DNA of 64,000 bases from an uncultured Actinomycetes bacterium (GCA_963711485.1 CAVQEM010000084.1:50180-114179); one strand, 5' to 3'; positions 12,275 to 36,533 are shown, counted from the stretch's first letter. A program made the numbers and translations. The notes: generated by a model from the sequence alone, not told the origin.

Positions 12275-12487
12275 GGGATGGCTGAATCGTAGCGGACCCG
12301 CCCTCTGGCGTGCGCCGCAGCCGCGCAGGCCGGAGCATCCGCCCTCCCGGGCCGGCTGGTGATTTCTAGTCATCCGGGGGGAGCAATCCGCGAATCTTTG
12401 TCCCGCCGGGGGGAGCCAAAACTTCGGTTAACCACGTACTATCCCGCTAACGCGGTCGCGTCACAAGGTCACAAGGTGGTGGGGCGA

Positions 12488-13198: not shown

Positions 13199-13210
13199 CC
13201 GGCGCCCCCG

Positions 13211-15174: not shown

Positions 15175-16833
15175 ATGATCGACGTACGCAACCCGGGCGA
15201 CGGATTCAGGTCGTTGCGGGCGCGGATCGCCGCGCTCGGGACACTCGGCGACCGTGACCGCGGCGCGGACGGCGCCCCGCTGACTGTGGGCGAGTGGGCC
15301 CTGCTGATCGACGACATCGTGGACCACCCGGCGGACAACACCGAGGGCCTGTGGAACGTGGCCGGGCCGGACGAGGACAACCGCGAGTACGACGCGATCT
15401 TCGTGGGCGGCGGCGCGAGCGGCCGCTTCGGCTCGGCCTTCCTGAAGGCCCGGGGCGGCCGCCAGCTCACCATCGACGCGTGGCCGTTCCTCGGCGGCTC
15501 CTGCCCGCACCAGGCCTGCGTGCCGCATCACCTGTTCTCCGAGGCCGCCCGGGAGATGGACCTGGCCCGGCACATGCAGGGCCGCCTGTGGTACCCGCCG
15601 TTCGACGAGAAGCGGGCCAGCATCCAGGAGATCGTCGACCTGTTCAAGGCCGGCCGGATGTACCCGCACGCCATCATGAACTGGCAGTCCAAGGAACAGC
15701 TGGACATGGAGTTCATCCTGAACACCCCGGCCAGGATCATCGACGCCCACACGGTCGAGGTGGAGGGCCGCCGGTTCACCGCCCGGAACCTGGTGCTGTG
15801 CACCGGCGCGCGGACCAGGTACCCGGACATCCCCGGCATCGGGATCAAGGGCGTGTTCGACTTCGCCACGCTCATCGAGGACCTGGACTACGAGCCGAAC
15901 CGCTGCGTGATCATCGGCGGATCCAAGGTGGCCCTGGAGTACGGGTCGTTCTTCCAGGCCACCGGCTGCCAGACCACGATCCTGACCCGCAGCCCGCTGA
16001 TGGAGACGGCCAGCCTGCACCACGTGGACGCGGGCCTGCGCGAGTACGTGGTCGCGATGATGGCCGACCGGGGCATCGAGATCATCGAGGGTGCCGAACC
16101 GCTCGAGGTGCTCGGCAACGGCAAGGTCACGGGGGTCCGCTACCAGGAGCCGGGCGGCGCGATCCGGCAGATCGACACCGATTTCGTGTTCGTCGGCACC
16201 GGCGAGCGTCCCGACCTCAGCATGTACGCGCCCCTCGGGCTGGCCACCGACGAGCGAGGGTTCGTGATCGCGGACACCCACATGCGCACCTCGGTGCCCG
16301 GGGTGTACGCGGCCGGTGACCTGGTCGGCCCGCCGATGGAGATGTTCAAGGCGCGCAAGTGCGGGGTGGGCGCGGCCCGCAACATCATGGGCGAGGACTA
16401 CGAGTTCGACTTCACCGAGTACCCGGACTTCCTGCACACCACGTACGAGGTGACCTGGTGCGGCCTGTCCGAGGCGGAAGCGAAGGCGAAGTACCGGAAC
16501 GTGATCAAGATCCAGATGCCGCCGGACGACGCCGACCCGGAGACGTTCGCGCTCCCGGCCGCCGAGGGCTCGATGCTGTACGCGTTCACCCGGCCGATCC
16601 TGTCCGGCTGGCTCAAGCTGGTCATCGACGCGGACAGCCGCAAGGTCCTCGGCGCGCACCACGTCGGGTACGGGGCCAAGGACGCGTTCCAGTACATCGA
16701 CTACCTGATCCGCCTGCCCGAGGGCTTCACCATGGACCAGATGGCCGAGCTGAACGAGCTGTTCCTCAACCCGGAGCACTTCATCCAGCTGTGCCGGCTG
16801 CGCGCGGGCCAGAGCAGCCCGGTGAACCTGTGA
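15175..16833 (+). CDS. xecC: NADPH:2-ketopropyl-CoM oxidoreductase/carboxylase (2-KPCC)-type disulfide oxidoreductase
   Basis: GGAGGG RBS sits 6 nt upstream. Motifs: EYDAIFVGGGASGRFGSAFL, WPFLGGSCPHQACVPHHLF (redox CxxxxC), GPPMEMFKARK, GAHHVGYGAKDAFQY, and ELFLNPEHFIQLCRLRAG in place of the usual HPT..E His-Glu dyad. Confidence 0.85.
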   Translation: MIDVRNPGDGFRSLRARIAALGTLGDRDRGADGAPLTVGEWALLIDDIVDHPADNTEGLWNVAGPDEDNREYDAIFVGGGASGRFGSAFLKARGGRQLTIDAWPFLGGSCPHQACVPHHLFSEAAREMDLARHMQGRLWYPPFDEKRASIQEIVDLFKAGRMYPHAIMNWQSKEQLDMEFILNTPARIIDAHTVEVEGRRFTARNLVLCTGARTRYPDIPGIGIKGVFDFATLIEDLDYEPNRCVIIGGSKVALEYGSFFQATGCQTTILTRSPLMETASLHHVDAGLREYVVAMMADRGIEIIEGAEPLEVLGNGKVTGVRYQEPGGAIRQIDTDFVFVGTGERPDLSMYAPLGLATDERGFVIADTHMRTSVPGVYAAGDLVGPPMEMFKARKCGVGAARNIMGEDYEFDFTEYPDFLHTTYEVTWCGLSEAEAKAKYRNVIKIQMPPDDADPETFALPAAEGSMLYAFTRPILSGWLKLVIDADSRKVLGAHHVGYGAKDAFQYIDYLIRLPEGFTMDQMAELNELFLNPEHFIQLCRLRAGQSSPVNL

Positions 16834-17573
16834 TGCCGCCGCCACCGGACCATCCGCGGGTCGCCGTGGTCACCGGGGGCGCCTCCGGGATCGGCCTGGC
16901 CACCTGCGGGCGGCTGGCCGGCGAGGGCTTCACCGTGGCCGCGCTGGACATGAAGCCGGACGGCGCGGCCGGGACGGCGGCGATGGCTCTGCGCTGCGAC
17001 GTCACCGAGCCCGGCGACGTGGACCAGGCCATGAGCGAGGTCGCCGCGCGACTCGGCCCCATCGACGTCCTGGTCAACAACGCCGGCATCACCGGCTCCC
17101 AGGCCGCGGCTCGCTGCCACGAGACCCCGGTGGCGGAGTGGGACCGGGTCCAGGCGGTCAACGTGCGCGGCCCGTTCCTGTGCAGCCGCGCGGTGCTGCC
17201 GTCCATGATCGCTCGCGGGTCCGGCCACATCATCACGATCGCGTCGATCGCCGGGCTGGTCGCCTTCCCGGGCCGGTGCGCGTACACCGCGTCCAAGGGT
17301 GCGGCGCTGATGCTCACCCGGTCGATCGCGGTGGACTACGCGGCGGCCGGCATCCGGGCCAACGCCGTCTGCCCGGGCATGGTGTACACCCCGATGACCA
17401 GCTGGCGGCTGGACCAGCCGGACCTGCGGGCCCAGGTGGAAGACCGGATCCCGATGGGGCGGGTGGCCGAGCCCGCCGAGATCGCGGACGCGGTCGCGCT
17501 GCTGGCTTCCGGGCGGCTCGGCTACATGACCGGCCACCCGCTGGTCGTGGACGGCGGGATGTCAGCCCTGTAA
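16833..17573 (+). CDS. short-chain dehydrogenase/reductase (candidate 2-hydroxyalkyl-CoM dehydrogenase)
   Basis: TGGASGIG, NNAG and YTASK motifs. The start overlaps the 2-KPCC stop (TGATG). Confidence 0.8.
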   Translation: MPPPPDHPRVAVVTGGASGIGLATCGRLAGEGFTVAALDMKPDGAAGTAAMALRCDVTEPGDVDQAMSEVAARLGPIDVLVNNAGITGSQAAARCHETPVAEWDRVQAVNVRGPFLCSRAVLPSMIARGSGHIITIASIAGLVAFPGRCAYTASKGAALMLTRSIAVDYAAAGIRANAVCPGMVYTPMTSWRLDQPDLRAQVEDRIPMGRVAEPAEIADAVALLASGRLGYMTGHPLVVDGGMSAL

Positions 17574-17626: not shown

Positions 17627-18400
17627 ATGACAGGCAAGCTGACGGGCAAGACAGCCGTGGTGACCGGGGCGGGGTCGGGGATCGGCCGGGCCGCCGCCAC
17701 GCTGTTCGCCCGCGAGGGCGCGGCGGTGGCGGTGCTGGACCTCGACGCCGACGCGGCCAAGACGGCGGCGGAGGAGATTACCGCCTCCGGCGGCACGGCG
17801 ATCGCCGTCGCGGCGAACGTCGCCGACCGGCTGCAGGTCGCCAGCGCCTTCGACCAGGTCTCTAACGGCTTCGGGCGTATCGACGTGCTTTACAACAACG
17901 CGGGTGTGAACAGCAGCGGGTCGGTCATCGACGCCAGTGACGATGACTGGGACCGGAGCTTCGCGGTGAACGCAAAGGGCACGTTCCTGTGCTCCCAGGC
18001 CGCCGCGCCGTCGATGGTGGCGGCCGGCGGCGGGTCGATCATCAACCAGGGCTCGGTCGCCGCCCTGGTCGGCATCGCGAACTTCGCCTCCTACTGCGCG
18101 TCCAAGGGGGCGGTGGTCGCGCTGACCAGGTCGATGTCCGTGGACCTGGCCCCGCGCGGGGTCCGGGTCAACGTGATCTGCCCGGGCACGGTGTACACGC
18201 CGCTGATGGAGCCCATGCTGCGGGCCCGCGGTGGCGGGGACATGGCGGCCGGGCTGGCGCTGACCGTGGCCAAGTACCCGATCGGCCGGCTCGGCACGCC
18301 GGAGGAGATCGCCGCGGTCGCGCTGTTCCTGGCCAGCGACGACTCCTCGTTCCTGACCGGCTCGGTGATCACCGCGGACGGCGGCATGACTTCCCAGTGA
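17627..18400 (+). CDS. short-chain dehydrogenase/reductase (second candidate 2-hydroxyalkyl-CoM dehydrogenase)
   Basis: TGAGSGIG, NNAG and YCASK motifs. It is the third gene of the 2-KPCC operon. Confidence 0.8.
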   Translation: MTGKLTGKTAVVTGAGSGIGRAAATLFAREGAAVAVLDLDADAAKTAAEEITASGGTAIAVAANVADRLQVASAFDQVSNGFGRIDVLYNNAGVNSSGSVIDASDDDWDRSFAVNAKGTFLCSQAAAPSMVAAGGGSIINQGSVAALVGIANFASYCASKGAVVALTRSMSVDLAPRGVRVNVICPGTVYTPLMEPMLRARGGGDMAAGLALTVAKYPIGRLGTPEEIAAVALFLASDDSSFLTGSVITADGGMTSQ

Positions 18401-18544: not shown

Positions 18545-18717
18545 AAATCAGGGGCGGGGTTTGCCTCCGGACTCCGTTAGTTCTGCGCCCGGATTCTTCT
18601 ACGCTCCGGGTGACCTACCTGATCCACGGGGCGGTGGAGCGTGGGCACAGTTGAGTCACCGGCAGGCACAGCACCGGCAGGACAGCCGGCGGCCGCCGCC
18701 GCCCGTGCCGCGACGAG

Positions 18718-20437
18718 GTGGTCCTGCTCCGCAGCCAGCTGACCAACCTGCGGGCGCTCCTGGTGCTGTCCATCCTGATGACCGAGAGCGCGGACGACCA
18801 GCAGATCCTGCGGCTGGCCACGTCCGCGGCCGCCTCACTGGGCAGCTGGCAGATCGCGGGTTTCGTGATCGGGGACGCGTGGTGGGCCGGCAGCCGCCGC
18901 TGCGGCGCCCCCGGCCCGGAGCTGGCCGCCGAGCTCCAGGCCCTGCCCGAGGCCGGCGGGCCAGTGACCAGCCTGGACGCCGGGTGGGCCTGGGCGTACC
19001 CGTTGCGGAGCATCGCGGGGCGGCTCGGCCACCTGATCGTGCACGCCGCGCGCGAGCCCGCGGTCGAGGAACAGTTCCTGGCCCAGGTGCTCGCCCAGCA
19101 GACCGGGGTGGCGGTATCCAACGCCCAGCTGCACGTGCGGGAGCGGGACATCGCGGAGCAGCTGGCCGCCACCAACGGCGCGCTCGAGGAGACGGTCGCC
19201 ACGCTGCGCCACGGCATGGCCATCCACGAGCGGCTCACCCGGGTCGCAGCGGCCGGCGAGGGCGCGGCCGGCATCGCCGAGGCGCTGCACGACCTGACCG
19301 GGCTCGCGGTCGCGGTGGAGGACCGCTACGGCAACCTGTCCGCGTGGTCCGGCCCGGGCCAGCCGGCCCGGTACCCGAAACTCGCCGCCTACGAGCGGGA
19401 GCAGCTGCTGCGCCTGCTGATGACCGCCGGCCGGTCGGTCCGCGACGGCGACCGCGTGGTCGCCCTGGCTTCGCCCCGCCCCGGCGTGCTCGGGCTGCTC
19501 GCCCTGATGGATCCCGGGCACCAGGCGGGCACCACGGACGTGATGGCCCTGGAGCACGGCGCCACCGTCCTCGCCGTCGAGCTGGCCCGGCTGCGCGGGC
19601 TGGCCGACACCGAACTGCGGGTCCGCCGCGAGCTGGTGCACGACCTGCTGACCGGCACCGACGACGAGAGCGCCCGCCTGCGCGCCGAGGCGCTCGGGTA
19701 CGACCTGGGGCGGCCGCACCAGGTGGCGGTGGTGGAGGTGGCCGAGAGCTCGCCGGCCCAGGAGGAGGTGCTGCACGCCACCCGCCGGGTGCTGCGCCAC
19801 CAGCACCGGCCCTGCCTGCTGGGCAGCATGGCGGGCACGGTGGTGATCGTGGCGCCAGCCATTTCGCCGGCCGCGCCGGGTGCGCCGGATGCGCCGGGTG
19901 GGCCGGGTGGCCTGCCACGGCGACCGCGCCGGCTGGGAAGCGCTGCGCGCCGGCATCGTGGCCGAGCTGGGCGGCAGCCGCTGCCGGATCGGCGTCGGCG
20001 ACGCCTACCCGCGGCCCTCGGAGCTGTCCCGCTCGCTGCGCGAGGCGCGGCTCGCGCTGCGGATGCAGGAGGCGTCCGCGTCGGCCGAGCGGACCTCGGT
20101 GTTCGCGGACCTCGACGTGCTGCGGATGCTGGCCGCGGTGGACGACCTGACCGATGTGGAGGCGTTCGTCCTCAAGTGGCTCGGCACGCTGGCGTCCTAC
20201 GACGAGCGCAAGCACACCGAGCTGGTCAAGACGCTGATCCAGTACCTGCAGCACGGCGGCGGGTACGAGGCCACCTCCCGGGCGCTGTCCGTGCACCGCA
20301 GCACGCTGAAGTACCGGCTGCAGCGGATCCGCGAGCTGACCGGCTTCGACCTGGGCAACCCCGAGACCCACTTCAACCTGCAGCTCGCGACCCGGGCCTA
20401 CGTGACCCTCCAGGCCCTCGGCGATACTCCGGCCTGA
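18718..20437 (+). CDS. PucR/CdaR-family regulator, copy 2, with a frame break near 19905-19915
   Basis: The N-terminal 380 aa (frame of 18718) and C-terminal 170 aa (frame of 19880, ...YLQHGGGYEATSRALSVHRSTLKYRLQRIRELTG) are both collinear with copy 1. The break lies in a gcgccgg-rich repeat. Confidence 0.7.
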
Positions 20438-20533: not shown

Positions 20534-21634
20534 ATGGACGGCAGCGCCAGCCCGGGGGAACGGCCCCCCGCCCCGCTTTCCCGGGGGACTTCCCCCGGAG
20601 CCCCCGGCCCCCGCACGTCGCCGGCCCGGAGGGAACACGCCTCCGGCGCGCCCCCCCTCGCCGGCGCGGATGAGCTGGAACTGTTCGCGCAGATGTGTTT
20701 CCTGCGGCGTTTCGAGGAGCGGGTTGACACGCTGTACCGGCAGGGCCAGATCCACGGCCCGGTGCACCTGGGGCTCGGCCAGGAGGCCATCGCCGTCGGG
20801 GCCGCGTCCGTGCTCCGCCCCGGCGACTACTCGCTGGGCACCTACCGGGGGCACGCGCACGCGCTGGCCCGGGGCGCCCCGGCCGACGCGGTCCTGGCCG
20901 AGCTGCTCGGCCGCGAGGGCGGGATCTGCGGGGGCAAGGGCGGCTCCATGCACATCACCAGCGTGGAGCACGGCTACTACGGCTCCTACGCCATCGTCGG
21001 CGCGCACCTTCCGATCGCCTGCGGCCTGGCCTGGGCGGCCCGGATCCGCCGCAGCGGGCAGGTCACCGCGTGCTTCTTCGGCGACGGGACCACCAACATC
21101 GGCGCGTTCCACGAAGCGGTCAACCTGGCCGCGGTGTGGCGGCTGCCGGTCGTGTTCGTGTGCGAGAACAACTGGTACATGGAGTACACCCCGATCGGGC
21201 ACGTGATCCCGGTCGGGCTGCCCGCCGCCGACCGGGCCGCCGCCTACGGACTGCCCCCGATCGTGGTCGACGGCAACGACGTCGCCGCGGTCCGGCAGGT
21301 GGTCGGCGACGCGGTCCGCGCCGCCCGGGACGGTGACGGGCCGAGCCTGATCGAGGCGCAGACCTACCGGCTCAAGGGCCACTCGGCCGCGGATGCCGCC
21401 GCGTACCGCCCGGCGGAGGAAGTGGCCCGCTGGCGCGAGCGGGATCCGCTGCTGCTCGCCCGGGCCACGCTGGTGGCCGACGGCACGGCCGCGGAGAAGC
21501 TGGACGAGATCGACACGCGGATCAAGGCCGACCTGGCCGAGCTGGCCCAGCAGGTGCTGGCCCGGCCCGTCCCCGACCCGGCCGGGGCCTGGACCGACGT
21601 GTGGAGCGATGGGAGCTGGCAATGGCGGAACTGA
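20534..21634 (+). CDS. TPP-dependent 2-oxoacid/acetoin dehydrogenase E1 alpha subunit
   Basis: GQIHGPVHLGLGQEA, GKGGSMH, and the TPP motif FFGDGTTNIGAFHEAVNLAAVWRLPVVFVCENN. Confidence 0.8.
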   Translation: MDGSASPGERPPAPLSRGTSPGAPGPRTSPARREHASGAPPLAGADELELFAQMCFLRRFEERVDTLYRQGQIHGPVHLGLGQEAIAVGAASVLRPGDYSLGTYRGHAHALARGAPADAVLAELLGREGGICGGKGGSMHITSVEHGYYGSYAIVGAHLPIACGLAWAARIRRSGQVTACFFGDGTTNIGAFHEAVNLAAVWRLPVVFVCENNWYMEYTPIGHVIPVGLPAADRAAAYGLPPIVVDGNDVAAVRQVVGDAVRAARDGDGPSLIEAQTYRLKGHSAADAAAYRPAEEVARWRERDPLLLARATLVADGTAAEKLDEIDTRIKADLAELAQQVLARPVPDPAGAWTDVWSDGSWQWRN

Positions 21635-22635
21635 CCTACCGGCAGGCCGTCGCCGCCGCGCTGGCCCAGGAGATGGCCCGGGACGACCGGGTCGTGCTGC
21701 TCGGCGAGGACGTCGGCTCCGGCGGGGTGTTCAAGACCACCGGGGGCCTGCGTGAGCGGTTCGGGGCGGACCGGGTCTGGGACACGCCGATCTCCGAGCA
21801 GGCCATCGCGGGTGCCGCCATGGGCGCGGCCATGGCCGGGCTGCGGCCGGTGGCCGAGATCATGTTCGCCGACTTCTACGCGACCTGCTGGGACCAGGTA
21901 GCCAACGAGATCGCGAAGGTCCGTTACATGACCGGCGGCCAGGTCAGCCTGCCGCTCGTGCTGCGCGGCGCGAACGGCTCCGGCGGGCTGGGGTTCGGCA
22001 GCCAGCACGGCCAGTCGGTGGAGAACTGGGCCATGACGGTGCCCGGGCTGAAGATCGCCTCACCGGCCGGCCCGGCCGAGGCGTTCGGGCTGCTCGCCGC
22101 GGCCATCCGGGACGACGACCCGGTCATGGTGCTCGAGCACAAGGCGCTGTACGGGCGGAAGGAGGCCATGCCGGAAGGTGGGCCCGACGGTGAGCTTGTG
22201 CTGCCGCTGGGCCAGGCGCGGATCGTGCGCCCGGGCGCCGACGTGACCCTGGTCGGGCTGTCCATCACGGTCGGCACCTGCGTGGCCGCGGCCGCCGAGC
22301 TGGCCGCCGAGGGCATCGAGGCCGAGGTCATCGACCTGCGGACGCTGGTGCCGCTGGACGTGGCCACGGTGCTCGGCTCGGTCGCGCGCACCGGGCGTCT
22401 GGTCGTGGTGGAGGAGAACCCGGGCCAGCTCGGCTGGGGGGCCTCGGTCGCGGCCATCGCGGCGCAGGAGGCGTTCGGCTCGCTCACCGCCCCGGTCACC
22501 CGGGTCAGCGGCGGCAACGTGCCGCTGCCGGTGGCCGCGTCCCTCGAGGCCGAGGTAGATGTGACCGCAGCGCGCGTGGTCGCGGCCAGCCAGGCGGTGC
22601 TGGCCGGCGGCCGGGAGCCGAGCGGAACCCGGTGA
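21622..22635 (+). CDS. TPP-dependent dehydrogenase E1 beta subunit
   Basis: MAELTYRQAVAAALAQEMARDDRVVLLGEDVG..., DTPISEQAIAG. Overlaps the alpha subunit by 13 nt. Confidence 0.85.
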   Translation: MAELTYRQAVAAALAQEMARDDRVVLLGEDVGSGGVFKTTGGLRERFGADRVWDTPISEQAIAGAAMGAAMAGLRPVAEIMFADFYATCWDQVANEIAKVRYMTGGQVSLPLVLRGANGSGGLGFGSQHGQSVENWAMTVPGLKIASPAGPAEAFGLLAAAIRDDDPVMVLEHKALYGRKEAMPEGGPDGELVLPLGQARIVRPGADVTLVGLSITVGTCVAAAAELAAEGIEAEVIDLRTLVPLDVATVLGSVARTGRLVVVEENPGQLGWGASVAAIAAQEAFGSLTAPVTRVSGGNVPLPVAASLEAEVDVTAARVVAASQAVLAGGREPSGTR

Positions 22636-22757
22636 GCTCCTGCCTCGTCCCGCAGGGGCCGCTGCCGGCGGCTGGTTGGTCCGGGCAGGTCATGGTCGGC
22701 CCGGCGAGGCCGATCGCACAGTGAACCCATGAGTCCGTAGCCGGCAAGGAGGCCGAA

Positions 22758-23870
22758 ATGCTAGTGGGCCATGAAGACGTCCTGCTTCCCACCACGATGG
22801 TCGGGAACTATCCCAACCCGCGCTGGTACGACGGGTACGCGCACTCGAAGCTTCCGCCCGGGGCCCTGGTGTATGACTCGCTGACCCGGGAGGCCTACGA
22901 GGACGCGATCCTCGCGGTGGTGCACGACCAGGAGTCCGCCGGGCTGGACATCATCTCCGACGGCCGCGTGCACGGCGGTGACAGCCCGTACGCCCAGGTC
23001 GTGTACCACTATTTCGAGCGGCTGCGCGGGTACGAGATCGACGGGCCCCAGCTTGGGCTGCCGATCTACTCGACGCTGTTCTCCCCCACCGTGGTGGGCG
23101 AGGTGTCCAGGCGCACCTCGTTCGCGATGCCGACCCTGCGCGCGGTGCGCAAGGCGACCAAGAAGCCGGTGAAGATCTCCTACCAGGGCATTCACGTGCT
23201 CGCGGCCGCGTCCAACGACCTGTTCTACAAGGACATGAAGGAACTGGCGACCGCCATCGCGAAGGCCTATCACGAAGACTTCCTGGAGCTCGCGGAGGCG
23301 GGGGCAGAGATCATCCAGCTGGATGAGTTCCTCTGGCCGTACGAGATGAATGACTGGCAGGTCGAGGTCTTCAACCTGGCCGTGGACAATGTCCCCGGCG
23401 TGCAGTTCTGGGTGCACACCTGCTGGGGGAACTACGGCGGCACCCCGGGTTACCTGCCGGACGACACCGAGCAGGAGTACGGGGCATACGTGCTGGCCAG
23501 CCGGCAGGCGGACACGGCGGCCCCCAACCGGGCCTTCGGCATCTTCCCGAAGGTCAAGGAGGCCCACCTGACCGCGCTGAACTGGGAGGTCGGCCGGACC
23601 GGCCCGGACGACCTGAAGCCGCTCGCCGAGAACAACTGGGATAGGGACTTCGTGGCGGGCGTGATCGACGTGAAGTTAACCATCACCGAGACCGCGGATG
23701 AGGTCGCGGACCGGATCCGGCAGTGCCTGGAGTACGTGCCGGCCGAGCGGCTCGGGCTGACCACCGACTGCGGCCTGGTCATGCTGCAGCGGATGACGGC
23801 GCAGAACAAGCTCCGCTCGCTGGCCGAAGGCGCGGCCAAAGTCCGGGCGGAACTCGGCCAGCCGGGCTGA
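22758..23870 (+). CDS. MetE-fold (Meth_synt_2) zinc alkyltransferase, epoxyalkane:CoM transferase-like, copy 1
   Basis: AAGGAGG RBS, 370 aa. Zn ligands are H220-x-C222 (FWVHTCWGN) and C338 (TTDCGL). About 65% identical to 44196..45299. Confidence 0.75.
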   Translation: MLVGHEDVLLPTTMVGNYPNPRWYDGYAHSKLPPGALVYDSLTREAYEDAILAVVHDQESAGLDIISDGRVHGGDSPYAQVVYHYFERLRGYEIDGPQLGLPIYSTLFSPTVVGEVSRRTSFAMPTLRAVRKATKKPVKISYQGIHVLAAASNDLFYKDMKELATAIAKAYHEDFLELAEAGAEIIQLDEFLWPYEMNDWQVEVFNLAVDNVPGVQFWVHTCWGNYGGTPGYLPDDTEQEYGAYVLASRQADTAAPNRAFGIFPKVKEAHLTALNWEVGRTGPDDLKPLAENNWDRDFVAGVIDVKLTITETADEVADRIRQCLEYVPAERLGLTTDCGLVMLQRMTAQNKLRSLAEGAAKVRAELGQPG

Positions 23871-23919
23871 GCGGCGCAGGCACAAGCACAGAATCCGTCA
23901 GCAGGAAAGGTGATAGTCA

Positions 23920-24960
23920 ATGGAAATTCGTGGCGAAGAAGTCCTGCTCCCCGTCTCGGCGGTGTCGGCGTTCCCCCGGCCGCACTGGCTGCAGGGGCGC
24001 GTCCTCGGCTCGCTGAGCGAACCGGTGTACCGCAGCCACAACCTGCGGGTGGCCTACGAGGATGCCTGTCATATCTGCGCGGACGAGCAGGAAAAGGCCG
24101 GGCTGGACATCCTGTGCGACGGCGCCCAGTACTACGAGTGGGAAGCGCCCGGCTTCCAGCTGGAGCCGATCTTCCACTTCATCCCGGAGAACCTGGGCGG
24201 CTTCCGGCCGTACGGTCCCCCTGGTGAGGGTGCCAAGTACCGGCCGTTCTACCAGGCCGTGGTCAAGGACAAGATCACCTGGGAGCGGCCCATCTTCGAG
24301 AGCGTGGTCATGACCATGCAGAACGTCACCGACAAGCCGTTCAAGGTGGCGTTCCTCGGCCCGGCCCAGCAGAGCGTCATCGTCAAGGACGAGTACTACG
24401 GCGACCAGATCGCGGTGGCCCGGGATCTGGCCATCGCGCTCAATCAGGAGCTGAAGTACCTCGTCAGCATCGGGCTGGAGGCGGTGCAGCTGATCGACGT
24501 GCTGGCGCCGTACACCACGGACATGTGGCAGATCGAGATGCAGAACATCCTGTTCGACGGCGTGGACGCGATCAAGTTCTGGCACATCTGCTACGGCAGC
24601 GTGGACGGCCAGCGGGACATCTTCGACAACCACGCCACCTCGATGATGCCGCTGTTCAAGGAGTCGCCCGCCGATGTGATCCACCTGGAGTTCACCAACA
24701 AGGGCTTCGACGAGCTGGAGGCGTTCCGCGACTTCCCCACCGACAAGGTGCTCGGCGCGGGCGTGGTGGACGCGAAGAACCTGCAGGTCGAGACCGCCGG
24801 GCAGATCGAGCGCCGGATCAGGCGCGTGCTGGAGGTCGTCCCGGCCGACCGGCTGCTGGTGGCACCGGACTGCGGGCTGGGGTACTTCAGCCGGACCGCC
24901 GCCTACGCCAAGCTCCGCAACATGGGGCAGGCGGCCGAGACCGTCCGAAGCACCCTGTGA
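23920..24960 (+). CDS. divergent MetE-fold zinc alkyltransferase
   Basis: 346 aa. Keeps H-x-C (FWHICYGS) and the distal Cys (APDCGLGY), but is otherwise far from the two EaCoMT-like copies. Confidence 0.7.
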   Translation: MEIRGEEVLLPVSAVSAFPRPHWLQGRVLGSLSEPVYRSHNLRVAYEDACHICADEQEKAGLDILCDGAQYYEWEAPGFQLEPIFHFIPENLGGFRPYGPPGEGAKYRPFYQAVVKDKITWERPIFESVVMTMQNVTDKPFKVAFLGPAQQSVIVKDEYYGDQIAVARDLAIALNQELKYLVSIGLEAVQLIDVLAPYTTDMWQIEMQNILFDGVDAIKFWHICYGSVDGQRDIFDNHATSMMPLFKESPADVIHLEFTNKGFDELEAFRDFPTDKVLGAGVVDAKNLQVETAGQIERRIRRVLEVVPADRLLVAPDCGLGYFSRTAAYAKLRNMGQAAETVRSTL

Positions 24961-24966
24961 CCAGGG

Positions 24967-25006
24967 CCGCGCGGGCCGGACGCCAGAGGCGTACCGGCCC
25001 GCGCGG
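24967..25006 (+). terminator. 13-bp perfect GC stem, 14-nt loop
   Basis: ccgcgcgggccgg ... ccggcccgcgcgg, 7 nt after the stop of 23920..24960. Confidence 0.5.
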
Positions 25007-25027
25007 TGTTACATTCACGGGGGGAGG

Positions 25028-25721
25028 ATGCGTATGACCGCAGAGGTGGGCCGCGAGGTGCTGGGCCTGCAGCTGCGCGTGGGCGATCACATCTGCGGCT
25101 TCTACCGCCAGCCCTCCGAGCGTGATGACATCCTCATCCCCTTCCTGATCGAGGGGCTCAAGGCGGGTGACAAGTGCACCTGCGTGGTGGACAGCTGCAC
25201 CCCGGAGGACGTGCTGGCCGGCATGGCCGAGCACATCGAGGTGGAGCCCTACCTGTCAGACCGCCAGCTCGAGGTGCTCGACTCCTACGGGACCTATCTG
25301 GCCGAGGGTGGCTTCCTGCCTGAGCGGATGCTGAAGTTCTGGGAGGGCAAGGCCCGCCAGAGCCTGGGCGGGGAGCGGCCCGGAGGCGGGGAGGCGGGGC
25401 GGGGAGCGGCCCGGAGGCGAGGAGCAGGTCAGCCCGGACGCCCCCATGCGGGCCCGGAACATCGGGGACATGAGCTGGGCGCACCGCGACGAGGCGGTGG
25501 TCAGTGACCTGATGGGCTACGAATCCGAGCTGAACCGGATCATGTCGAACTTCCCCCAGGTCAACCTCTGCCTCTACGACCTGACCCGGTGCTCCGGGGA
25601 CCTGATCATGGACGTGCTGAAGACGCACCCCAAGGCGCTGCTCGGCGGCATGGTTATCGACAACCCGTACTACCTGGACCCCGACGAGTTCCTGGCCAGC
25701 AGGCTGGACCGTGACAGCTGA
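25028..25721 (+). pseudogene. MEDS-domain protein, copy 2, disrupted by a 31-nt tandem duplication
   Basis: The N-terminal part is in the frame of 25028 and the C-terminal part (GYESELNRIMSNFPQVNLCLYDL...) in the frame of 25446. Deleting 25367-25397 restores a single ORF. Confidence 0.75.
25367..25428 (+). repeat. 31-nt imperfect tandem duplication (28/31 identical)
   Basis: ggcggggagcggcccggaggcg occurs twice exactly 31 nt apart. Confidence 0.9.
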
Positions 25722-26516
25722 GCCAGGCATAACGGCTCCCCCGGCTGCCGCGCGGATCCCGGCCGAGCGGACCCATCACGGCGACACCGTGATCGACGAG
25801 TACGCGTGGCTGGCCGGCAAGGAGAACCCGGAGACGATCGCGTTCCTGAACGCCGAGAACGCCTACACGCAGGCGCTGACCGCGGGCCAGGCCGCCCTCC
25901 GCGACACGATCTTCGGCGAGATCAAGGCCCGGACCCAGGAGACGGACCTGTCCGTGCCCACCCGCAAGGGCGGCTGGTGGTACTACTCCCGGACGGTCGA
26001 GGGGAAGCAGTACGCGCTGCACTGCCGGCGGGCCGTCCGGGCGGAAGACACCGGACCGCCCGGGACCGGTCAGGGCGGTCCGCTGGACGGCGAGGGGCCG
26101 GACGGGGGGCCGCTGGACGGCGAGGAGGTCCACCCGCCGTCGTGGCGCCGCGGCGCCAGCGCGTGGAGTACGAGGTCGAGCACCAGGGCAGCACGGACGG
26201 CACCGGCCGGCTGCTGATCCTGCACAACGACCACGCGGAAAAGTACCCGCCCGTGCTGGCGGTCACCAGCCTCAACGACACCAGGGTGCTCTACACCGAG
26301 CCGGCCAAGTGGATCGCCCGGCTCCAGGCGGGGGCACGGGGCGGCCCGTTCCTGCTGAAGACCGAGATGACCGCCGGGCACGGCGGCCGCAGCGGCCGGT
26401 ACGACGCGTGGCACGAGGAGGCCCTGGTGCTGGCCTGGATCGTGGCCACCGTCTCGGGCATCCCCGTGATCGGGGTGGGTTTTGCGCCGCCCGCGGCGCA
26501 AAACCCACCCCGATAA
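25711..26516 (+). pseudogene. ptrB: oligopeptidase B (S9A) remnant with large internal deletions
   Basis: The N-terminal ~130 aa is intact (HGDTVIDEYAWLAGKENPETIAFLNAENAYT...). It is followed only by a propeller fragment (EYEVEHQGS..LLILHNDHAE) and the last ~70 aa (VLAVTSLNDTRVLYTEPAKWIARLQ...TEMTAGHGG), in a second frame. Confidence 0.7.
26469..26514. terminator. 46-nt perfect palindrome (22-bp arms), a bidirectional terminator candidate
   Basis: atcggggtgggttttgcgccgc-cc-gcggcgcaaaacccaccccgat, between the convergent ptrB remnant and the aldehyde dehydrogenase. Confidence 0.6.
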
Positions 26517-26555: not shown

Positions 26556-28082
26556 TCACCGGCCGTAGGCGTGCCAGTGCGCGCCGAACAGGGCTTCCTC
26601 GCTGATCGTCTTGGGCTCGATGGGCCGGGACACCCAGGTCAGGTTGACGAAGTGCCGCGCGTTGACGTTCTCGGTGGTGATGTTGCCGCCCCAGGCCCCG
26701 CAGCTGAGGCTGAGCGTGAACGGCAGGCCGTTGCGCGGGCTGCCCGCCCCCTCGTTCATGTTCTGGTTCACCAGCACGCGGGCGGTCCGGGTCGTCAGGG
26801 CCAGCCGTTCCACGTTCGCGTCCGAGCTGCTGTGGATGCCGCAGGTGTGGCCGAGCCCCTGGTAGGCGGTGATGGCGTTGACGAGGTCCGCGGCGGCGCT
26901 GATGCCGCCCTCGTACCGGTAGACGGCCAGCACCACGGACAGCTTCTCGCCCGAGAACGGATGATCCGGGCCGGTGCCCGTCTCCTCGACCATGATCATC
27001 GGGCAGGCCGGATCGAGCCCGAAGCCGGCCAGCCCCGCGATGTGCGCCGCGGACTTCGCCACCACGGCGGCCGCGGGCACCGGGCCGCCGTCCGGCCACA
27101 TCACCTGGCGCAGCGCCTCCTTCTGCTCCGCGTCGCACCGGTGCGCCCCGGCCTCGGTCAGCCGCCAGACCAGCTCGTCGTATACGTCCGCGTGGACGAC
27201 CAGGGCGTTGTCGGCCAGGCAACTCGTGGCGTAGTCGAAGGTCTTCGCGGCGAGGATGGCGGAGGCCGCGTCGGCCAGGTCAGCGGTCTCGTCCACCACA
27301 TGCACGGCGTTGCCCACCCCCACCCCGTAGGCCGGGGTGCCGGAGCTGTACGCGGCGTGCACCATGCCCGCGCCGCCGGTCGCGACGATCAGGTCAGCCT
27401 GGCGCATCAGCTCCTGGGTCTTCGGCAGCGACGGCGCGGGCAGCGACTGGACCAGGTCCGCGGGCGCGCCGACCTGCTCGCACGCGGCCCGCATGAACCC
27501 GGCCACCGCCTCGGTGGCGCCGGTGGTCCGCGGGTGCGGCGCGCAGATGATCGCGTTCCGGCCCTTGAGCGCGAACAGCGCCTTGACCGGCGGGGTCGCG
27601 TCCGGCCCGGTGGTCGGGATCAGCGCGGCGACCACCCCGACCGGCTTGGCGATTTTCACCAGGCCGGCCGAGGGCAACTCCTCCACGACCCCGACGGTCC
27701 GCAGCCCGGTCATGTCGGCCAGCACGCCGGTCACCCGTTTGTTGATCTTCGCGACCTTGTCCGTGTAGTTGCCGAACCCGCCCTCGTCCACGGCGAGCCG
27801 GGCCAGCGCCTCGGCGTGGTCCTTGCGCACCACAGCCCAGGCCACCGCCGTGACCAGCTCGTCCACCTGCTCCTGGGTGTAGGACTCGATGGCGCGGGCG
27901 GCCGTGCGGGCCCGGGCCACGACCGCCGCGACCTCGCTGGCCACCGGGCTGGCTTGCGCCGCGCTGGCTCCTGCCGGGCTGGCTCCTGCCGGGCTGGCTT
28001 GCGCCGGGCTGGGGCCCGCCGGGCTGGCCGTCTCAGGGCTGGCCACCACGGGGCCGTGCTTGCTGCTGCTGCGCTCCGTCAT
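26556..28082 (-). CDS. CoA-acylating aldehyde dehydrogenase (EutE/SucD/SauS-like)
   Basis: 508 aa starting at MTERSSSKHG. Motifs IPTTGPDATPPVKALFALKGRNAII and TFDYATSCLADN (catalytic Cys). The N-terminus carries a 15-nt repeat. Confidence 0.8.
   Translation of the reverse strand: MTERSSSKHGPVVASPETASPAGPSPAQASPAGASPAGASAAQASPVASEVAAVVARARTAARAIESYTQEQVDELVTAVAWAVVRKDHAEALARLAVDEGGFGNYTDKVAKINKRVTGVLADMTGLRTVGVVEELPSAGLVKIAKPVGVVAALIPTTGPDATPPVKALFALKGRNAIICAPHPRTTGATEAVAGFMRAACEQVGAPADLVQSLPAPSLPKTQELMRQADLIVATGGAGMVHAAYSSGTPAYGVGVGNAVHVVDETADLADAASAILAAKTFDYATSCLADNALVVHADVYDELVWRLTEAGAHRCDAEQKEALRQVMWPDGGPVPAAAVVAKSAAHIAGLAGFGLDPACPMIMVEETGTGPDHPFSGEKLSVVLAVYRYEGGISAAADLVNAITAYQGLGHTCGIHSSSDANVERLALTTRTARVLVNQNMNEGAGSPRNGLPFTLSLSCGAWGGNITTENVNARHFVNLTWVSRPIEPKTISEEALFGAHWHAYGR
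27946..28050. repeat. 7 x 15-nt tandem repeat (gggctggctcctgcc-like) encoding SPAGA pentapeptides in the ALDH N-terminus
   Basis: Read directly from the sequence. Confidence 0.85.
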
Positions 28083-28214: not shown

Positions 28215-29624
28215 GTGATGGGAGCACGGGTGGCACGGCTCGTGGTGATCGGCGGCGGCGCCGCCGGGATGTCGGCCGCCTCGGCGGCCCGGCGCACCGA
28301 CCCCGGCCTCGACGTGGTGGTCTGCGAGGCAGGCGGCTTCGCCGCCTACGGCATGTGCGGGATCCCGTATTACCTGGGGGGCACCGTCGCAGCGCCGGAG
28401 GACTTGCTCGCCTATCCCCCGTCTGCCTTCCGCGAGGAGCGCGGCATCGACCTGCGGCTGCACACCCGGGTCACCGGGATCGACCCGGCCGCCCGGCAGG
28501 TGCGGCTGGCCGCCGGGACTCCCGCGGCGCAGGCTCCATCGGCCACCACGGGGGAGCCGCTGGCTTACGACGCGCTGGTGGTGACCAGCGGCGCCGACCC
28601 GGTCCGCCCGCCGATACCCGGCCTCGACGACCGCCGCGTGTTCACGATCCGGTCCCTGGACGAGGCGATCGGGCTGCGGCGGCTGCTGGCCAGCCGCACC
28701 ATGCGCCGCGCGGTCGTGGTGGGTGCCGGGTACGTCGGCCTGGAGACCGCGGAGGCCCTGGTCTGCGCGGGCGTGGACGTGGAGGTAGTCGAGGCGCTGC
28801 CCGGGGTGCTGGGCACCGTGGACGAGCCAGTCGCCGCGCTGGCCCAGGCCGAGGTCGAGCGGCACGTGAAGCTGCGGCTCGGCGCCCGGCTGGAGGCGGT
28901 GGACCAGGGCAGCACCCCGGCCGGCTGCCTGACCGCGGTGGTGGAAGGCGAGGAGATCCCCGCCGACGTGGTGGTCATCGCGGTTGGCGTCCGCCCCGCC
29001 ACGGACCTGCTGATCCAGGCGGGTGCCAGGCACCTGCCGGATGGGTCGGTGGTGGTGGACGCCGGGATGCGCACCTCGCTGCCGGACGTGTTCGCGGCGG
29101 GGGACGCGGTCGCGCTGCCGCACCTGGTGCTGGGCCGCCCCGCCTGGGTCCCGCTCGGTCCCGCCGCCAACAAGACCGGCCGGGTGGCCGGGACCGTGGC
29201 CGCCGGGGGGACCGCCTCGTTCCGGGGCGTGGTCGGCACCGCGGTGGTGAAGGTCTTCGACCTGGAGGTGGCCCGGACCGGGCTGGGGCTGGCCGAGGCG
29301 CAGGCGGCCGGGCTGGATGCGGTGGCGACCGACGAGGTGTCCCGGTCCCGGGCCAAGTACTACCCGGGCAGCTCGCCGCTGCACGTCCGGCTGGTGCACA
29401 CCCGGGAGGGGCGGCTGCTCGGCGGGCAGCTCGCGGGCCGGGAGGGCGCCGCCAAGCGTGTCGACGTGCTGGCCACCGCGCTGCATGCCGGGTTCAGCGT
29501 GGAGGACCTGGCGGCGCTCGACCTCAGCTACGCCCCGCCGTTCGCGCCGGTCTACGACCCGGTGCTGGCCGCCGCCATCAAAGCCACCCGCGGTCTGGCC
29601 GCGTTCACTGGAGGATCCCCATGA
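28215..29624 (+). CDS. FAD-dependent pyridine nucleotide-disulfide oxidoreductase, CoA-disulfide reductase / NADH oxidase class
   Basis: LVVIGGGAAGMSAA, a single active-site Cys in AAYGMCGIPYY, a second Rossmann VVVGAGYVGLE, and AAGD. Transcribed divergently from the ALDH. Confidence 0.75.
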   Translation: MMGARVARLVVIGGGAAGMSAASAARRTDPGLDVVVCEAGGFAAYGMCGIPYYLGGTVAAPEDLLAYPPSAFREERGIDLRLHTRVTGIDPAARQVRLAAGTPAAQAPSATTGEPLAYDALVVTSGADPVRPPIPGLDDRRVFTIRSLDEAIGLRRLLASRTMRRAVVVGAGYVGLETAEALVCAGVDVEVVEALPGVLGTVDEPVAALAQAEVERHVKLRLGARLEAVDQGSTPAGCLTAVVEGEEIPADVVVIAVGVRPATDLLIQAGARHLPDGSVVVDAGMRTSLPDVFAAGDAVALPHLVLGRPAWVPLGPAANKTGRVAGTVAAGGTASFRGVVGTAVVKVFDLEVARTGLGLAEAQAAGLDAVATDEVSRSRAKYYPGSSPLHVRLVHTREGRLLGGQLAGREGAAKRVDVLATALHAGFSVEDLAALDLSYAPPFAPVYDPVLAAAIKATRGLAAFTGGSP

Positions 29625-30553
29625 GCCTGCGCCCACCGGCCGACAAGCGGGCCAGCCTGGCCGACGCGGCCGCCCTGGTCATCGACGGCGCCATGGTCGC
29701 GCTCGGCGGTGGCCTGTCCGCCCGGCTGCCCATGGCCCTGGTCCGCGAGCTGGTCCGGCAGCGCCGGAGCGGCCTGCACCTGGTCGGGTCGGCGCACAGC
29801 ATCGACGTGGACATGCTCGTGGGTGCCGGGGCCGTCCGCCGGTGCGAGGAAAGTTACGTCGGCTTCGAGCAGGACCTCGGGCTGGCTCCCGCGTACCGCC
29901 GGGCCGCCGAGGAGGCCACGATCGAGGTGGCGGAGAGCTGCTGCGCCACGATCCTGGCCCAGCTGCGGGCGGCCGAGATGGGGGTGCCGTTCCTGCCCGT
30001 CCGCGGGGTCCGCGGCTCCGACATCGTCCGGCTGCACCCCGAGTACGCGGAGGTCACCTGCCCGTTTACCGGGGAGACACTGGTCGCCGTGCCCCCGCTG
30101 CGCCCCGATGTGGCGCTGCTGCACGCGCCGTCCGGGGACCGCTACGGCAACCTGCACCTGGAGCAGCCGTACGTGCTGGACGAGCGGTTCGCCTCCGCGT
30201 CACGGATGGTCATCGCGACCGTCGACGAGCTGGTCTCCACCGAGCAGGTGACCGCGGCAGGCGTCACCGTCCCCGGGCACCTGGTGGCGGCCGTCGCGCA
30301 CGTCCCGTTCGGGGCCCATCCGGCGTCCTGCTACCCGCGCTACGCCTATGACCGCAGCCACCTGCGTGAGTACGTGGCCGCGGCCCAGTCCGGGCCGGAG
30401 GGCCTGGACAAGTACCTGGCCGCCTACGTGCAGGACAGCGAGGAGAGCTACCGGGGCGCGATCGGCCCCGACCGGCTCTCCCGGCTGGCCGCCTGGTCCC
30501 GGTCCACCGACGCGTGGCAGGAGCTGTTCTCACAGGCGGGAGACTCCGCATGA
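29621..30553 (+). CDS. CoA-transferase subunit A (glutaconate-CoA-transferase-like)
   Basis: ASLADAAALVIDGAMVALGGG ... GDRYGNLHL. ATGA overlap with the upstream gene. Confidence 0.8.
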   Translation: MSLRPPADKRASLADAAALVIDGAMVALGGGLSARLPMALVRELVRQRRSGLHLVGSAHSIDVDMLVGAGAVRRCEESYVGFEQDLGLAPAYRRAAEEATIEVAESCCATILAQLRAAEMGVPFLPVRGVRGSDIVRLHPEYAEVTCPFTGETLVAVPPLRPDVALLHAPSGDRYGNLHLEQPYVLDERFASASRMVIATVDELVSTEQVTAAGVTVPGHLVAAVAHVPFGAHPASCYPRYAYDRSHLREYVAAAQSGPEGLDKYLAAYVQDSEESYRGAIGPDRLSRLAAWSRSTDAWQELFSQAGDSA

Positions 30554-31393
30554 GCTGGACCATCGACGAGTGGTTCGTGGTGGCGCTGGCCCGGACCATC
30601 CGGCCCCGGGAAACGGTGTTCCACGGCTTCGGCAGCCCGTGCGCACAGGTCGCGATGCACGTGGCCCGGCGCACCCACGCCCGGGACATGGTGCTGGTCG
30701 AGGGCGCCATGTACGCGATCAACCCCGACCCCCCGTTCATCCCGCCGACCAGCAACGACGACAGCCTGCGCCGGGGCGCGGCGTACAGCATGCGGTTCGA
30801 GGAGTTCTTCGACGCCGCGGTCCGCGGCGACGTGGACCGGATGTTCCTGTCCGGCGGGCAGATCGACGGGTACGGCAACACCAACGTCACCGCGATCGGG
30901 CCGGCTGGCCAGGCCGAAGGTGAAGCTGGGCGGCGGGGGCGGCGGCTGCAACCTGTCCGCCACCATCGGCCACCTCACGGTCTGGACCACCCGGCACCGC
31001 TCCGGCCGGACCCTGGTCCGCGACTGCGACTTCGTCACCGACATGGGCCACCGCACCCGGCTTGGCACCCGGGCCGAGCTCGGCTTCACCGGCGGCGGCC
31101 CGCAGTGGCTGGTCACCGAGCTGGGCGTGTTCGACTACCCGCAGGGGCAGGCCCGGCTGGTGCAGGTGTTCCCGGACGTCAGCGTGGCCGAGGTCCGCGC
31201 GGCCACCGGCTTCGCCCTGCAGGTGGCCGGGGACCTGCGCCCGGTCCCGCCGCCGTCGGTGTCCGAGCTGGCCGCGGTCCGCTCGGTGGACCCGCTCGGA
31301 GTCCGGACATCGGAGTTCTCCCCGAAGGAGCTGGCCAGAGTCTTCGAGAGCAGGGCGTCCGTCCAGGGGCACGGCCAGGACTGCGCATGCTGA
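30550..31393 (+). CDS. CoA-transferase subunit B, frame break near 30910
   Basis: The N-terminal half is in the frame of 30550 (...GQIDGYGNTNVTAIGPAGQ). The C-terminal half is in the frame of 30920 (KVKLGGGGGGCNLSATIGHLTVWTTRH...). ATGA overlap with subunit A. Confidence 0.7.
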
Positions 31394-33567: not shown

Positions 33568-33627
33568 TCACTGCAGGCCGGCTGGCCGCCGCGGCCGGGA
33601 GGGTGGTTGCCCTGGCGGCCGGCGACG

Positions 33628-35079: not shown

Positions 35080-35093
35080 GCTGTGCCGCGCCG

Positions 35094-35165
35094 CGACGGC
35101 ACCGGCCCGGACGACGGCACCGGCCCTGACGACGGCACCGGCCGGGGCGACGGCACCGGGCCAGG
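35094..35165. repeat. 4 x 18-nt tandem repeat (cgacggcaccggcccgga-like)
   Basis: Read directly. Lies just upstream of, or within the 5' end of, the hybrid kinase gene. Confidence 0.85.
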
Positions 35166-36432: not shown

Positions 36433-36533
36433 CAAGCGGCAGGTTTTCTGAGGCAACCGCACCCGCTCCGCGGGCCCGGCACCGGCCGGCCCGCGGAGCG
36501 GCATGTTCGCGTCCCGGTGCTGGGCGGCTGCGC

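Follow-up and report, generated by a model that had tools for sequence, protein, structure and literature searches.

What is a pair of thiamine pyrophosphate (TPP)-dependent E1 subunits doing in one operon with proteins of the methionine synthase (MetE) fold, inside an island of coenzyme M (CoM) genes? The question is raised by positions 20534 to 24960 of a 64,000-nucleotide stretch of DNA from an uncultured Actinomycetes bacterium (GCA_963711485.1, CAVQEM010000084.1:50180-114179; this whole stretch is referred to here as the window), where genes for an E1 alpha and an E1 beta subunit (E1a and E1b, together E1ab) are followed by genes for two MetE-fold proteins, termed M1 and M2. Bacterial CoM catabolism is currently described with four enzymes, namely, epoxyalkane:CoM transferase (EaCoMT), the R- and S-hydroxypropyl-CoM dehydrogenases (R-HPCDH and S-HPCDH), and 2-ketopropyl-CoM oxidoreductase/carboxylase (2-KPCC), plus an unresolved ethene branch. 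The CoM-dependent epoxide pathway is thus known; what is new is a module within it that consists of a TPP enzyme and a MetE-fold protein. Full-text literature searches and targeted reading found no description of an E1 or of a second MetE-like gene in CoM clusters, and the proteome supplement for Actinomycetospora chiangmaiensis contained no relevant entries. Our tentative answer, which we rate somewhat short of an even chance, is that E1a-E1b-M2 forms an accessory module, under regulators of its own, of the CoM-dependent catabolism of epoxides and short-chain carbonyls, where a MetE-fold enzyme for C-S bonds and a TPP lyase for C-C bonds would act on a CoM-linked carbonyl compound. The chance of any one specific substrate is much lower than that.

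Results

E1a-E1b-M2 is the conserved unit

The gene order given in an earlier note on this DNA (a PucR-type regulator upstream, then E1 alpha, E1 beta, an EaCoMT-like gene, a divergent MetE-like gene, and a strong hairpin) was fully reproduced, including the 13-nucleotide (nt) overlap of the E1 genes, which can be read directly from the E1 beta ATG at 21622 and the E1 alpha stop codon at 21632-21634. The window has a G+C content of ~72%, and its genes were called from third-position G+C and then checked against profile libraries (Table 1). The reading frames of E1a, E1b, M1, and M2 are all intact. A predicted E1b-M2 fusion protein of 540 amino acids (aa) (P0003) was rejected as a gene-calling read-through over a repetitive spacer.

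For a survey of gene neighborhoods, one genome per GTDB species was scanned with an M2 alignment, the best 80 of 135 relatives were kept (loci L001 to L080), and the window proteins were mapped onto them. Slices of 21 kb were used, and statements that no E2 or no monooxygenase was found hold for these loci, not for whole genomes. The pairing of E1ab with a Meth_synt_2-type gene that the earlier note had suggested looking for was found as E1a-E1b-M2 in 51 of the 80 loci and in the window arrangement, E1a-E1b-EaCoMT-M2, in 8 further loci, all close relatives. A single E1 subunit lies beside M2 in 3 loci (partial genes or contig ends), E1ab is located elsewhere in the locus in 2, a different TPP enzyme replaces E1ab in 6, no TPP enzyme is present inside 10 kb in 6, and the upstream flank is too short for judgement in 4. 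A TPP enzyme was therefore found in 70 of the 76 informative loci. The spacing of the genes can be tight: in L085, the gap between E1b and M2 is 11 nt, and in L063, where the order is M2-E1a-E1b, M2 and E1a overlap by 4 nt. L009 is collinear with the window at ~95% DNA identity.

Relatives without M1 align to the window until ~22614 and resume at ~23889, and M1 therefore corresponds to an inserted segment of 1.27 kb; M1 is a lineage-specific insertion, and the conserved unit is E1a-E1b-M2. The earlier note had described the operon as E1 genes joined to a pair of MetE-fold alkyltransferases. This pair is not what is conserved, since M1 is present in only 8 of the 80 loci. The window also contains a third MetE-fold gene, M3, next to comA. 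The proposal that M1 and M2 work as a hetero-oligomer likewise fails as a general mechanism, with M1 missing from 72 of the 80 loci.

Hosts of the surveyed loci include Streptosporangiaceae and other Actinomycetes metagenome-assembled genomes (MAGs), Geodermatophilaceae, Acidimicrobiia, Burkholderiales/Betaproteobacteria MAGs, and Chloroflexota; isolates belong to Pseudonocardia, Actinomycetospora, and Nocardioides. E1ab and M2 are inherited together in Actinomycetota, Chloroflexota, and Betaproteobacteria MAGs, in islands that encode 2-KPCC, HPCDHs, EaCoMT, and CoM biosynthesis. The clusters of the classical alkene oxidizers JS614, Mycobacterium NBB4, and Xanthobacter autotrophicus Py2 contain neither an M2 orthologue nor E1ab, and the plasmids of known alkene oxidizers gave only EtnE/XecA matches to M2, at ~29% identity. 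The statement that known clusters have a single EaCoMT and no E1 thus stands for E1 in these three strains, but one EaCoMT per cluster is not a strict rule: two matching places were obtained on each of the plasmids of Py2 and JS614, and two EtnE proteins are mentioned for Py2 in PMC11507031.

Among recurrent neighbors, a gene for an acylating aldehyde dehydrogenase resembling SauS (SauS-like ALDH) is found in 48 of the 80 loci, a flavin mononucleotide (FMN)-dependent 2-hydroxyacid dehydrogenase gene adjoins in 11, and genes for an F420-dependent LLM oxidoreductase and an XcbC-like lyase also recur. In a single case (L080, a Mycobacteriales MAG), a gene for pyruvate phosphate dikinase is located upstream of the E1ab-M2 genes (3131-5821 of that locus). 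Phosphoenolpyruvate is a precursor of CoM.

M1 and M3 are EtnE-type transferases, and M2 belongs to a clade of its own

EaCoMT (EC 4.4.1.23) is represented by XecA of Py2 and by EtnE of Mycobacterium and Nocardioides. M3 is 79%, 73%, and 52% identical to EtnE of JS614, EtnE of NBB4, and XecA, respectively, and M1 is 66%, 64%, and 51% identical to the same proteins and 65% identical to M3. Both share the zinc ligands of these enzymes, which are invariant in M1 (H220, C222, and C338), as well as a 22-residue insertion that EaCoMTs carry after the HxC motif. By sequence relationship, M1 is an EtnE-type EaCoMT, and M3 likewise belongs to this family. M2 has the same fold, the same type of zinc ligands, and the same CoM genomic context, but it is only 30% identical to each of the three reference proteins (29 to 32% over EaCoMTs) and lacks the insertion. 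Its ligands (His-x-Cys...Cys; H222, C224, and C318) are invariant in 13 orthologues. The islands that encode M2 also carry genes of the EtnE or XecA type.

When 143 MetE-fold sequences from all fetched loci were clustered, four clades were obtained, an EtnE-type clade, with which M1 groups, an XecA-type clade, M2, and M2b/c. When 1.84 billion representative sequences were searched exhaustively for M2 with HMMER, only 35 reached an E value of ≤1e-30; the nearest full-length outgroups are 35 to 39% identical to it, and one divergent lineage is 57% identical. With its low identity to EaCoMTs, the absent insertion, and a clade of its own, M2 is classed here as distinct from EaCoMT, a member of a compact, separate, and newly recognized MetE-fold clade with intact zinc ligands. 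An AlphaFold2 (AF2) model of M2 is of moderate quality (pLDDT 72, pTM 0.78) and matches MetE barrels in Foldseek at a TM score of 0.66; it confirms the fold but is too poor for an analysis of the pocket. Methionine synthase models all score far under their cutoffs, the best of them being NF003317 (cutoff, 406), on which M1 scores 184.6 bits and M2 176.1 bits. Low-identity EtnE matches have been dismissed as probable methionine synthases in one published paper (PMC11507031).

The E1 subunits retain the catalytic residues of 2-oxoacid dehydrogenases

Positions 20534-22635 encode an E1_dh-type alpha subunit and a beta subunit with the Transket_pyr/Transketolase_C architecture. The TPP motif (GDG...NN), the His of the alpha "GHS" motif, and the His of the beta "QH(G/S)QS" motif (QHGQS in the window) are retained in the window and, with few exceptions, in the orthologues. 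In these motifs, as in domain architecture, E1ab agrees with the alpha2beta2 E1 components of pyruvate dehydrogenase (PDH), branched-chain 2-oxoacid dehydrogenase (BCKDH), and acetoin dehydrogenase. The differences from these complexes are that the window and most loci have no E2 or E3, that the genes are operonic with a MetE-fold gene in CoM islands, and that E1a scores 334 bits against the PDH alpha equivalog model TIGR03182, under its cutoff of 393.85. E1b passes the subfamily model NF006667 (334.8 bits; cutoff, 321) and stays under the cutoff of the equivalog model NF008854 (339.9 bits; cutoff, 454). The nearest solved structures are human PDH E1 alpha for E1a (207 bits) and the beta subunits of a Thermus 2-oxoacid dehydrogenase and of PDH for E1b.

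On these features, E1ab is predicted to be a catalytically intact TPP enzyme of the PDH/acetoin dehydrogenase type, which looks lipoyl competent and was probably linked to an E2 in its ancestry. The joint inheritance of E1ab with M2 in the CoM islands of several phyla led us to reject a housekeeping PDH or BCKDH E1, in line with what the earlier note had supposed. The closest plasmid-borne E1ab, in Rhodococcus USK13, is 53.5% identical and is likewise part of an ALDH-E1a-E1b set without E2.

Lipoyl E2 genes occur in divergent clusters

The absence of an E2 from the window was borne out: no E2 or lipoyl protein came up when two E2 sequences of related loci served as tblastn queries, and an E2, if one is used in this genome, must therefore be encoded outside the window. 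No E2 was found inside 10 kb in any of the 80 loci. Four divergent loci, L086, L090, L091, and L093, encode a PDH-type lipoyl E2 in the cluster. The gene order in L086 and L090 is E1a-E1b-M2-E2. In L091 and L093, both from Ktedonobacteria, E1a-E1b-E2 forms an operon that is divergent from an M2-led CoM operon (M2-EaCoMT-SDR-SDR-CoAT-CoAT-2-KPCC in L091 and M2-ALDH-SDR-CoAT-CoAT-2-KPCC in L093, where SDR stands for short-chain dehydrogenase/reductase and CoAT for coenzyme A [CoA]-transferase) that runs on into CoM biosynthesis genes. The E2-bearing versions are deep branching (Ktedonobacteria and Solirubrobacterales-like). In L091, genes for acetone carboxylase (two hydantoinase-A-type subunits and the gamma subunit; 1-4066) adjoin the E1ab-E2/M2/2-KPCC cluster. 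2-KPCC yields acetone as a side product when no carboxylation occurs.

As to E3, the window does encode two proteins of the flavoprotein disulfide reductase family, 2-KPCC and a CoA-disulfide-reductase-like protein, but neither is of the Lpd type, and no Lpd-type E3 was found in any cluster examined. The disulfide reductases of L086 and L090 are of the 2-KPCC type, and those of L091 and L093 are 62 to 63% identical to the 2-KPCC of the window. The reductase at 15175-16833 was considered as the missing E3 and rejected, because it is orthologous to 2-KPCC and bears the Phe/His signature of that enzyme.

TPP enzymes are paired with further MetE-fold clades

In the six loci with a different TPP enzyme, the substitute for E1ab is a single-chain protein of 587 aa whose best solved relatives are benzaldehyde lyase (BAL) and formolase (371 to 373 bits). 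In four of the six loci, it is located beside the M2 paralogue M2b; SDRs are also present, as is an alpha/beta hydrolase in three loci. BAL of Pseudomonas fluorescens is a TPP-dependent acyloin C-C lyase, and acetoin-cleaving E1 enzymes carry out the same acyloin cleavage chemistry. The likeness to BAL is that of this BAL-like enzyme of M2 loci without E1ab; the enzyme is absent from the window, and its partner is M2b.

A metagenome scan with an alignment of three outgroup sequences yielded loci L094 to L105 and a sister clade, M2d, that is 37 to 41% identical to M2. M2d is directly downstream of ComA in 10 of these 12 loci (the other two contigs start at M2d), as it also is in L069 and L074, and it is followed by orthologous E1a-E1b genes (62 to 74% identity to those of the window) or by a BAL-like enzyme. 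Where the contig is long enough (L097, L102, L069, and L074), the cluster has no ComA other than this one. TPP enzymes and MetE-fold proteins are thus repeatedly found together in three combinations, always inside CoM islands: E1ab with M2, E1ab with M2d, and the BAL-like enzyme with M2b.

The Pseudonocardia-type loci (L050, L054/L088, L058, and L074 to L076) have two to four MetE-fold genes, namely, an M2 orthologue plus M2b, M2c, or both, joined in L074 by M2d; L074 to L076 additionally carry an XecA-type EaCoMT. A BAL-like TPP enzyme and one or two SDRs are encoded in these loci, with an alpha/beta hydrolase and a class II aldolase in L050 and L054/L088. The MetE-fold theme has thus radiated more densely in these loci.

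The operon is embedded in a CoM island and flanked by its own regulators

The CoM context that the earlier note had read from the DNA is amply present, with orthologues of 2-KPCC and of R- and S-HPCDH, two EtnE-type transferases, and genes resembling the bacterial xcb CoM biosynthesis genes (Table 1). The 2-KPCC is highly similar to that of Py2 and has both the redox-active CxxxxC motif and a Phe...His motif in place of the His-Glu dyad; the segment 15175-18400 is equivalent to xecC-xecD-xecE. The island shares its 2-KPCC, HPCDH, and EaCoMT orthologues with the epoxypropane carboxylation pathway of Py2 (xecA, -C, -D, and -E) and with the etn clusters of JS614 and NBB4. Further features in common with these systems are the EtnR1/EtnR2-like regulators, CoM biosynthesis genes, and the genes for the CoA-disulfide-reductase-like flavoprotein, the CoA-transferases, and the acyl-CoA synthetase, which correspond to the ethene-type set upstream of etnE in JS614 and NBB4. 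In NBB4, a similar aldehyde dehydrogenase gene adjoins a 2-KPCC-like gene. Compared with these pathways, the E1ab-M2 module is extra in the window, and no monooxygenase gene was found in the window, nor any alkene monooxygenase gene among the recurrent or sampled flanking genes of related loci.

EtnR1 and EtnR2 are characterized in PMC11197473 as the epoxide-responsive activator pair of NBB4. Two such pairs are encoded in the window, and the second, PucR2 upstream and MEDS2 downstream, flanks the E1ab-M1-M2 operon. Both regulators of this second pair contain one frameshift: the intact orthologues in L009 align to the window in frame 1 and then frame 2 for PucR2 (606 aa) and in two frames for MEDS2 (263 aa). 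Together with CoA-transferase B and the XcbC-like lyase, this makes four window genes with single frameshifts relative to intact orthologues, which suggests indel errors of long-read sequencing or assembly or, alternatively, a real, early decay of the island. The G+C-rich hairpin between M2 and MEDS2 is terminator-like without a clear U tract. It lies directly upstream of the MEDS2 gene and might act as a terminator or else as a site of processing or attenuation between the enzymes and their sensor.

TABLE 1 Features of the window, with strand and supporting matches
Feature	Position	Strand	Evidence and remarks
MEDS (12359-13198) and PucR copy 1 (13211-14935), first EtnR2/EtnR1-like pair	12359-14935	+	
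2-KPCC	15175-16833	+	PDB 1mo9, 597 bits; CPHQAC and ELFLNPEHF motifs
R-HPCDH-like SDR	16830-17573	+	2cfc, 246 bits
S-HPCDH-like SDR	17657-18400	+	4gh5, 191 bits
PucR/CdaR-type regulator, copy 2 (PucR2, EtnR1-like)	18703-20437	+	GGDEF_2 and HTH_30 in two frames; one frameshift, ~19860-19928
E1 alpha, TPP-binding subunit	20534-21634 (other start, 20459)	+	PF00676, 245 bits
E1 beta	21622-22635	+	PF02779 and PF02780
M1, MetE-fold, 370 aa, EtnE-type EaCoMT paralogue	22758-23870	+	PF01717, 83 bits
M2, MetE-fold, 346 aa, predicted Zn-thiol alkyltransferase	23920-24960	+	PF01717, 79 bits
G+C-rich hairpin between M2 and MEDS2	24966-25007	+	dG -50.2 kcal/mol; z = -7.35; 0/200 shuffles as stable
MEDS sensor, copy 2 (MEDS2, EtnR2-like)	25050-25721 (start approximate)	+	PF14417; one frameshift near 25378-25434
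SauS-like acylating aldehyde dehydrogenase	26556-27944	-	NF047625, 523.7 bits, under cutoff of 600
CoA-disulfide-reductase-like flavoprotein, CoA-transferases A and B, ADP-forming acyl-CoA synthetase	28242-33567	+	CoA-transferase B frameshifted at ~30900
M3 (EtnE orthologue, 44196-45299), ComA, DUF7714, ADSL-like lyase, pyridoxal phosphate (PLP) enzyme, XcbC-like lyase	44196-51347	+	M3 plus bacterial (xcb-like) CoM biosynthesis genes; XcbC-like lyase frameshifted at ~50785

Several other features of the window were noted. What remains of a prolyl-oligopeptidase (S9) gene at 26142-26516 amounts to 124 aa; in L002 to L010 and L020, the gene is present at the same position at a full length of ~721 aa. 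The ~10.6 kb between the acyl-CoA synthetase gene and M3 (33600-44195) contain genes for a histidine kinase/response regulator hybrid, a glycosyl-hydrolase-like protein, a glycosyltransferase, and an epimerase. The genes for acyl-CoA synthetase, EtnE, and ComA are consecutive in many relatives (e.g., L012, L014, and L024), with no other mapped gene between them, and L009 has most of the insertion but not 33600-35329. Two adjoining short open reading frames on the minus strand (59245-60207) resemble, by eye, fragments of an IS66-family transposase.

Discussion

How might a TPP enzyme and a MetE-fold protein work together in a CoM island? In the mechanism that we propose, M2 would form or break a C-S bond that links CoM to an electrophile outside the range of EaCoMT. 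The TPP enzyme would cut the C-C bond beside the carbonyl of the resulting CoM-linked 2-oxo or 2-hydroxy-ketone compound in an acyloin-type cleavage. One product would be an acyl unit, which in clusters with an E2 would pass to lipoyl-E2 and on to acyl-CoA and which, where E2 is missing, may leave as an aldehyde, as in BAL. The other product would be a sulfonated aldehyde fragment, which the neighboring SauS-like acylating aldehyde dehydrogenase could consume. The cleavage of an alpha-hydroxyketone suggested in the earlier note finds indirect support in the BAL-like substitutes for E1ab. Its further suggestion, that the product is handed to a thiol other than lipoamide, is weakened by the lipoyl E2 of the most divergent clusters and by the conserved catalytic His pair.

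Several points weigh against this proposal. The evidence picks out no single candidate substrate. Coupling is not obligatory, given that six loci carry M2 with no TPP enzyme inside 10 kb. A similarity to BAL of ~372 bits is no proof of acyloin lyase activity; E1a scores nearest to pyruvate-type E1, and a plain 2-oxoacid may be the substrate. The FMN dehydrogenase and the ComA-M2d-E1ab operons would fit a route from a 2-hydroxyacid to a 2-oxoacid, or a link to CoM synthesis, as well. Finally, both operon regulators, PucR2 and MEDS2, are frameshifted in the window.

A more far-reaching version, which we regard as possible though not probable, is that CoM thioethers are themselves the substrates of TPP-dependent C-C bond cleavage (or formation), aided by a hitherto unrecognized radiation of MetE-fold proteins (M2, M2b/c, and M2d). 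The enzyme might, for instance, be a 2-oxoalkyl-CoM lyase for CoM adducts of the 2-oxopropyl or 2-oxoethyl type, from which it would release an acetyl unit and leave a fragment bound to CoM. If true, such an enzyme would constitute a bypass of 2-KPCC that requires neither CO2 nor NADPH, and in the reverse direction it would yield 2-oxopropyl-CoM from pyruvate and a CoM-activated C1 unit. In either direction, this would represent new CoM biochemistry that is widespread in uncultured soil Actinomycetota.

Alternatively, the two functions might be unlinked, with E1ab an ordinary E1 of pyruvate or acetoin dehydrogenase that uses E2 and E3 from elsewhere and clears pyruvate, lactate, or acetoin produced nearby and with M2 a second CoM transferase isozyme for another epoxide. 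The closeness of both E1 subunits to PDH-type models and structures speaks for this explanation, and the PDH-type E2 in some loci, the lactate-dehydrogenase-like character of the FMN enzyme gene that adjoins in 11 loci, and the occurrence of M2 without E1ab in 6 to 12 loci point the same way. We nevertheless consider it unlikely: E1b and M2 adjoin directly or overlap in operons of several phyla, TPP enzymes have repeatedly been paired with different MetE-fold clades, E1a falls under the PDH equivalog cutoff, and the well-studied alkene oxidizers also make pyruvate yet do without the module.

The reading that follows the earlier note, in which E1ab is truly an orphan that passes its TPP-bound intermediate to a non-lipoamide thiol (CoM, CoA, or CoM disulfide) while M1 and M2 form a hetero-oligomeric alkyltransferase, fits the missing E2 in the window and inside 10 kb in the 80 loci and the disulfide reductases of the clusters examined, which are of the 2-KPCC rather than the Lpd type; a BAL-like substitute, moreover, requires no acyl acceptor. 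It appears distinctly unlikely when set against the most divergent lineages, which have a lipoyl E2 beside E1ab or M2, against the conservation of both His residues for reductive acylation of lipoamide, and against the restriction of M1 to 8 loci. MetE-fold enzymes, in addition, are known for the transfer of alkyl, not acyl, groups.

It is also improbable that the module is an archaeal-like branch of CoM biosynthesis or salvage in which sulfolactate is oxidized to sulfopyruvate by the FMN dehydrogenase and converted by the TPP enzyme to sulfoacetaldehyde or sulfoacetyl-CoA, with the SauS-like dehydrogenase and M2 in the last steps. ComA-M2d-E1a-E1b operons that hold the sole ComA of their cluster would suit such a branch, as would the score of the SauS-like enzyme near the sulfoacetaldehyde dehydrogenase model and the adjoining FMN 2-hydroxyacid dehydrogenase of some loci. 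JS614, NBB4, and Methylohalobius crimeensis, however, have CoM biosynthesis genes and no M2 or E1ab, islands that bear the module already contain a full xcb-like set, and we see no known chemistry by which a MetE-fold enzyme would thiolate sulfoacetaldehyde. The bacterial CoM pathway comprises five steps and requires no TPP step (PMC9457059).

That M1 and M2 are cobalamin-independent methionine synthases, as databases name them (JGI naming, and matches to PF01717 and several NCBIfam "methionine synthase" models), is most improbable in view of scores such as 176 bits against a cutoff of 406, the 64 to 66% identity of M1 to EtnE proteins, and a genomic context that is always CoM metabolism.

An accessory module of CoM-dependent catabolism, which we tentatively prefer over these alternatives, has consequences beyond the window. 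The module is found in many genomes and MAGs of at least three phylum-level groups, with its own regulators of the epoxide sensor type, and is absent from the model alkene oxidizers JS614, NBB4, and Py2, which points to CoM chemistry that has not been assayed. Several new MetE-fold clades sit in the databases under the misnomer "methionine synthase." Cultured hosts exist among Actinomycetospora and Nocardioides species, with Actinomycetospora endophytica TBRC 5722, Nocardioides marmoriginsengisoli Gsoil 097, and Nocardioides sp. CPCC 206347 as candidates. If the TPP enzyme acts on CoM thioethers, the known roles of the smallest organic cofactor would be widened, and the module could help to account for the use of CoM islands by soil Actinomycetota that have no adjoining alkene monooxygenase.

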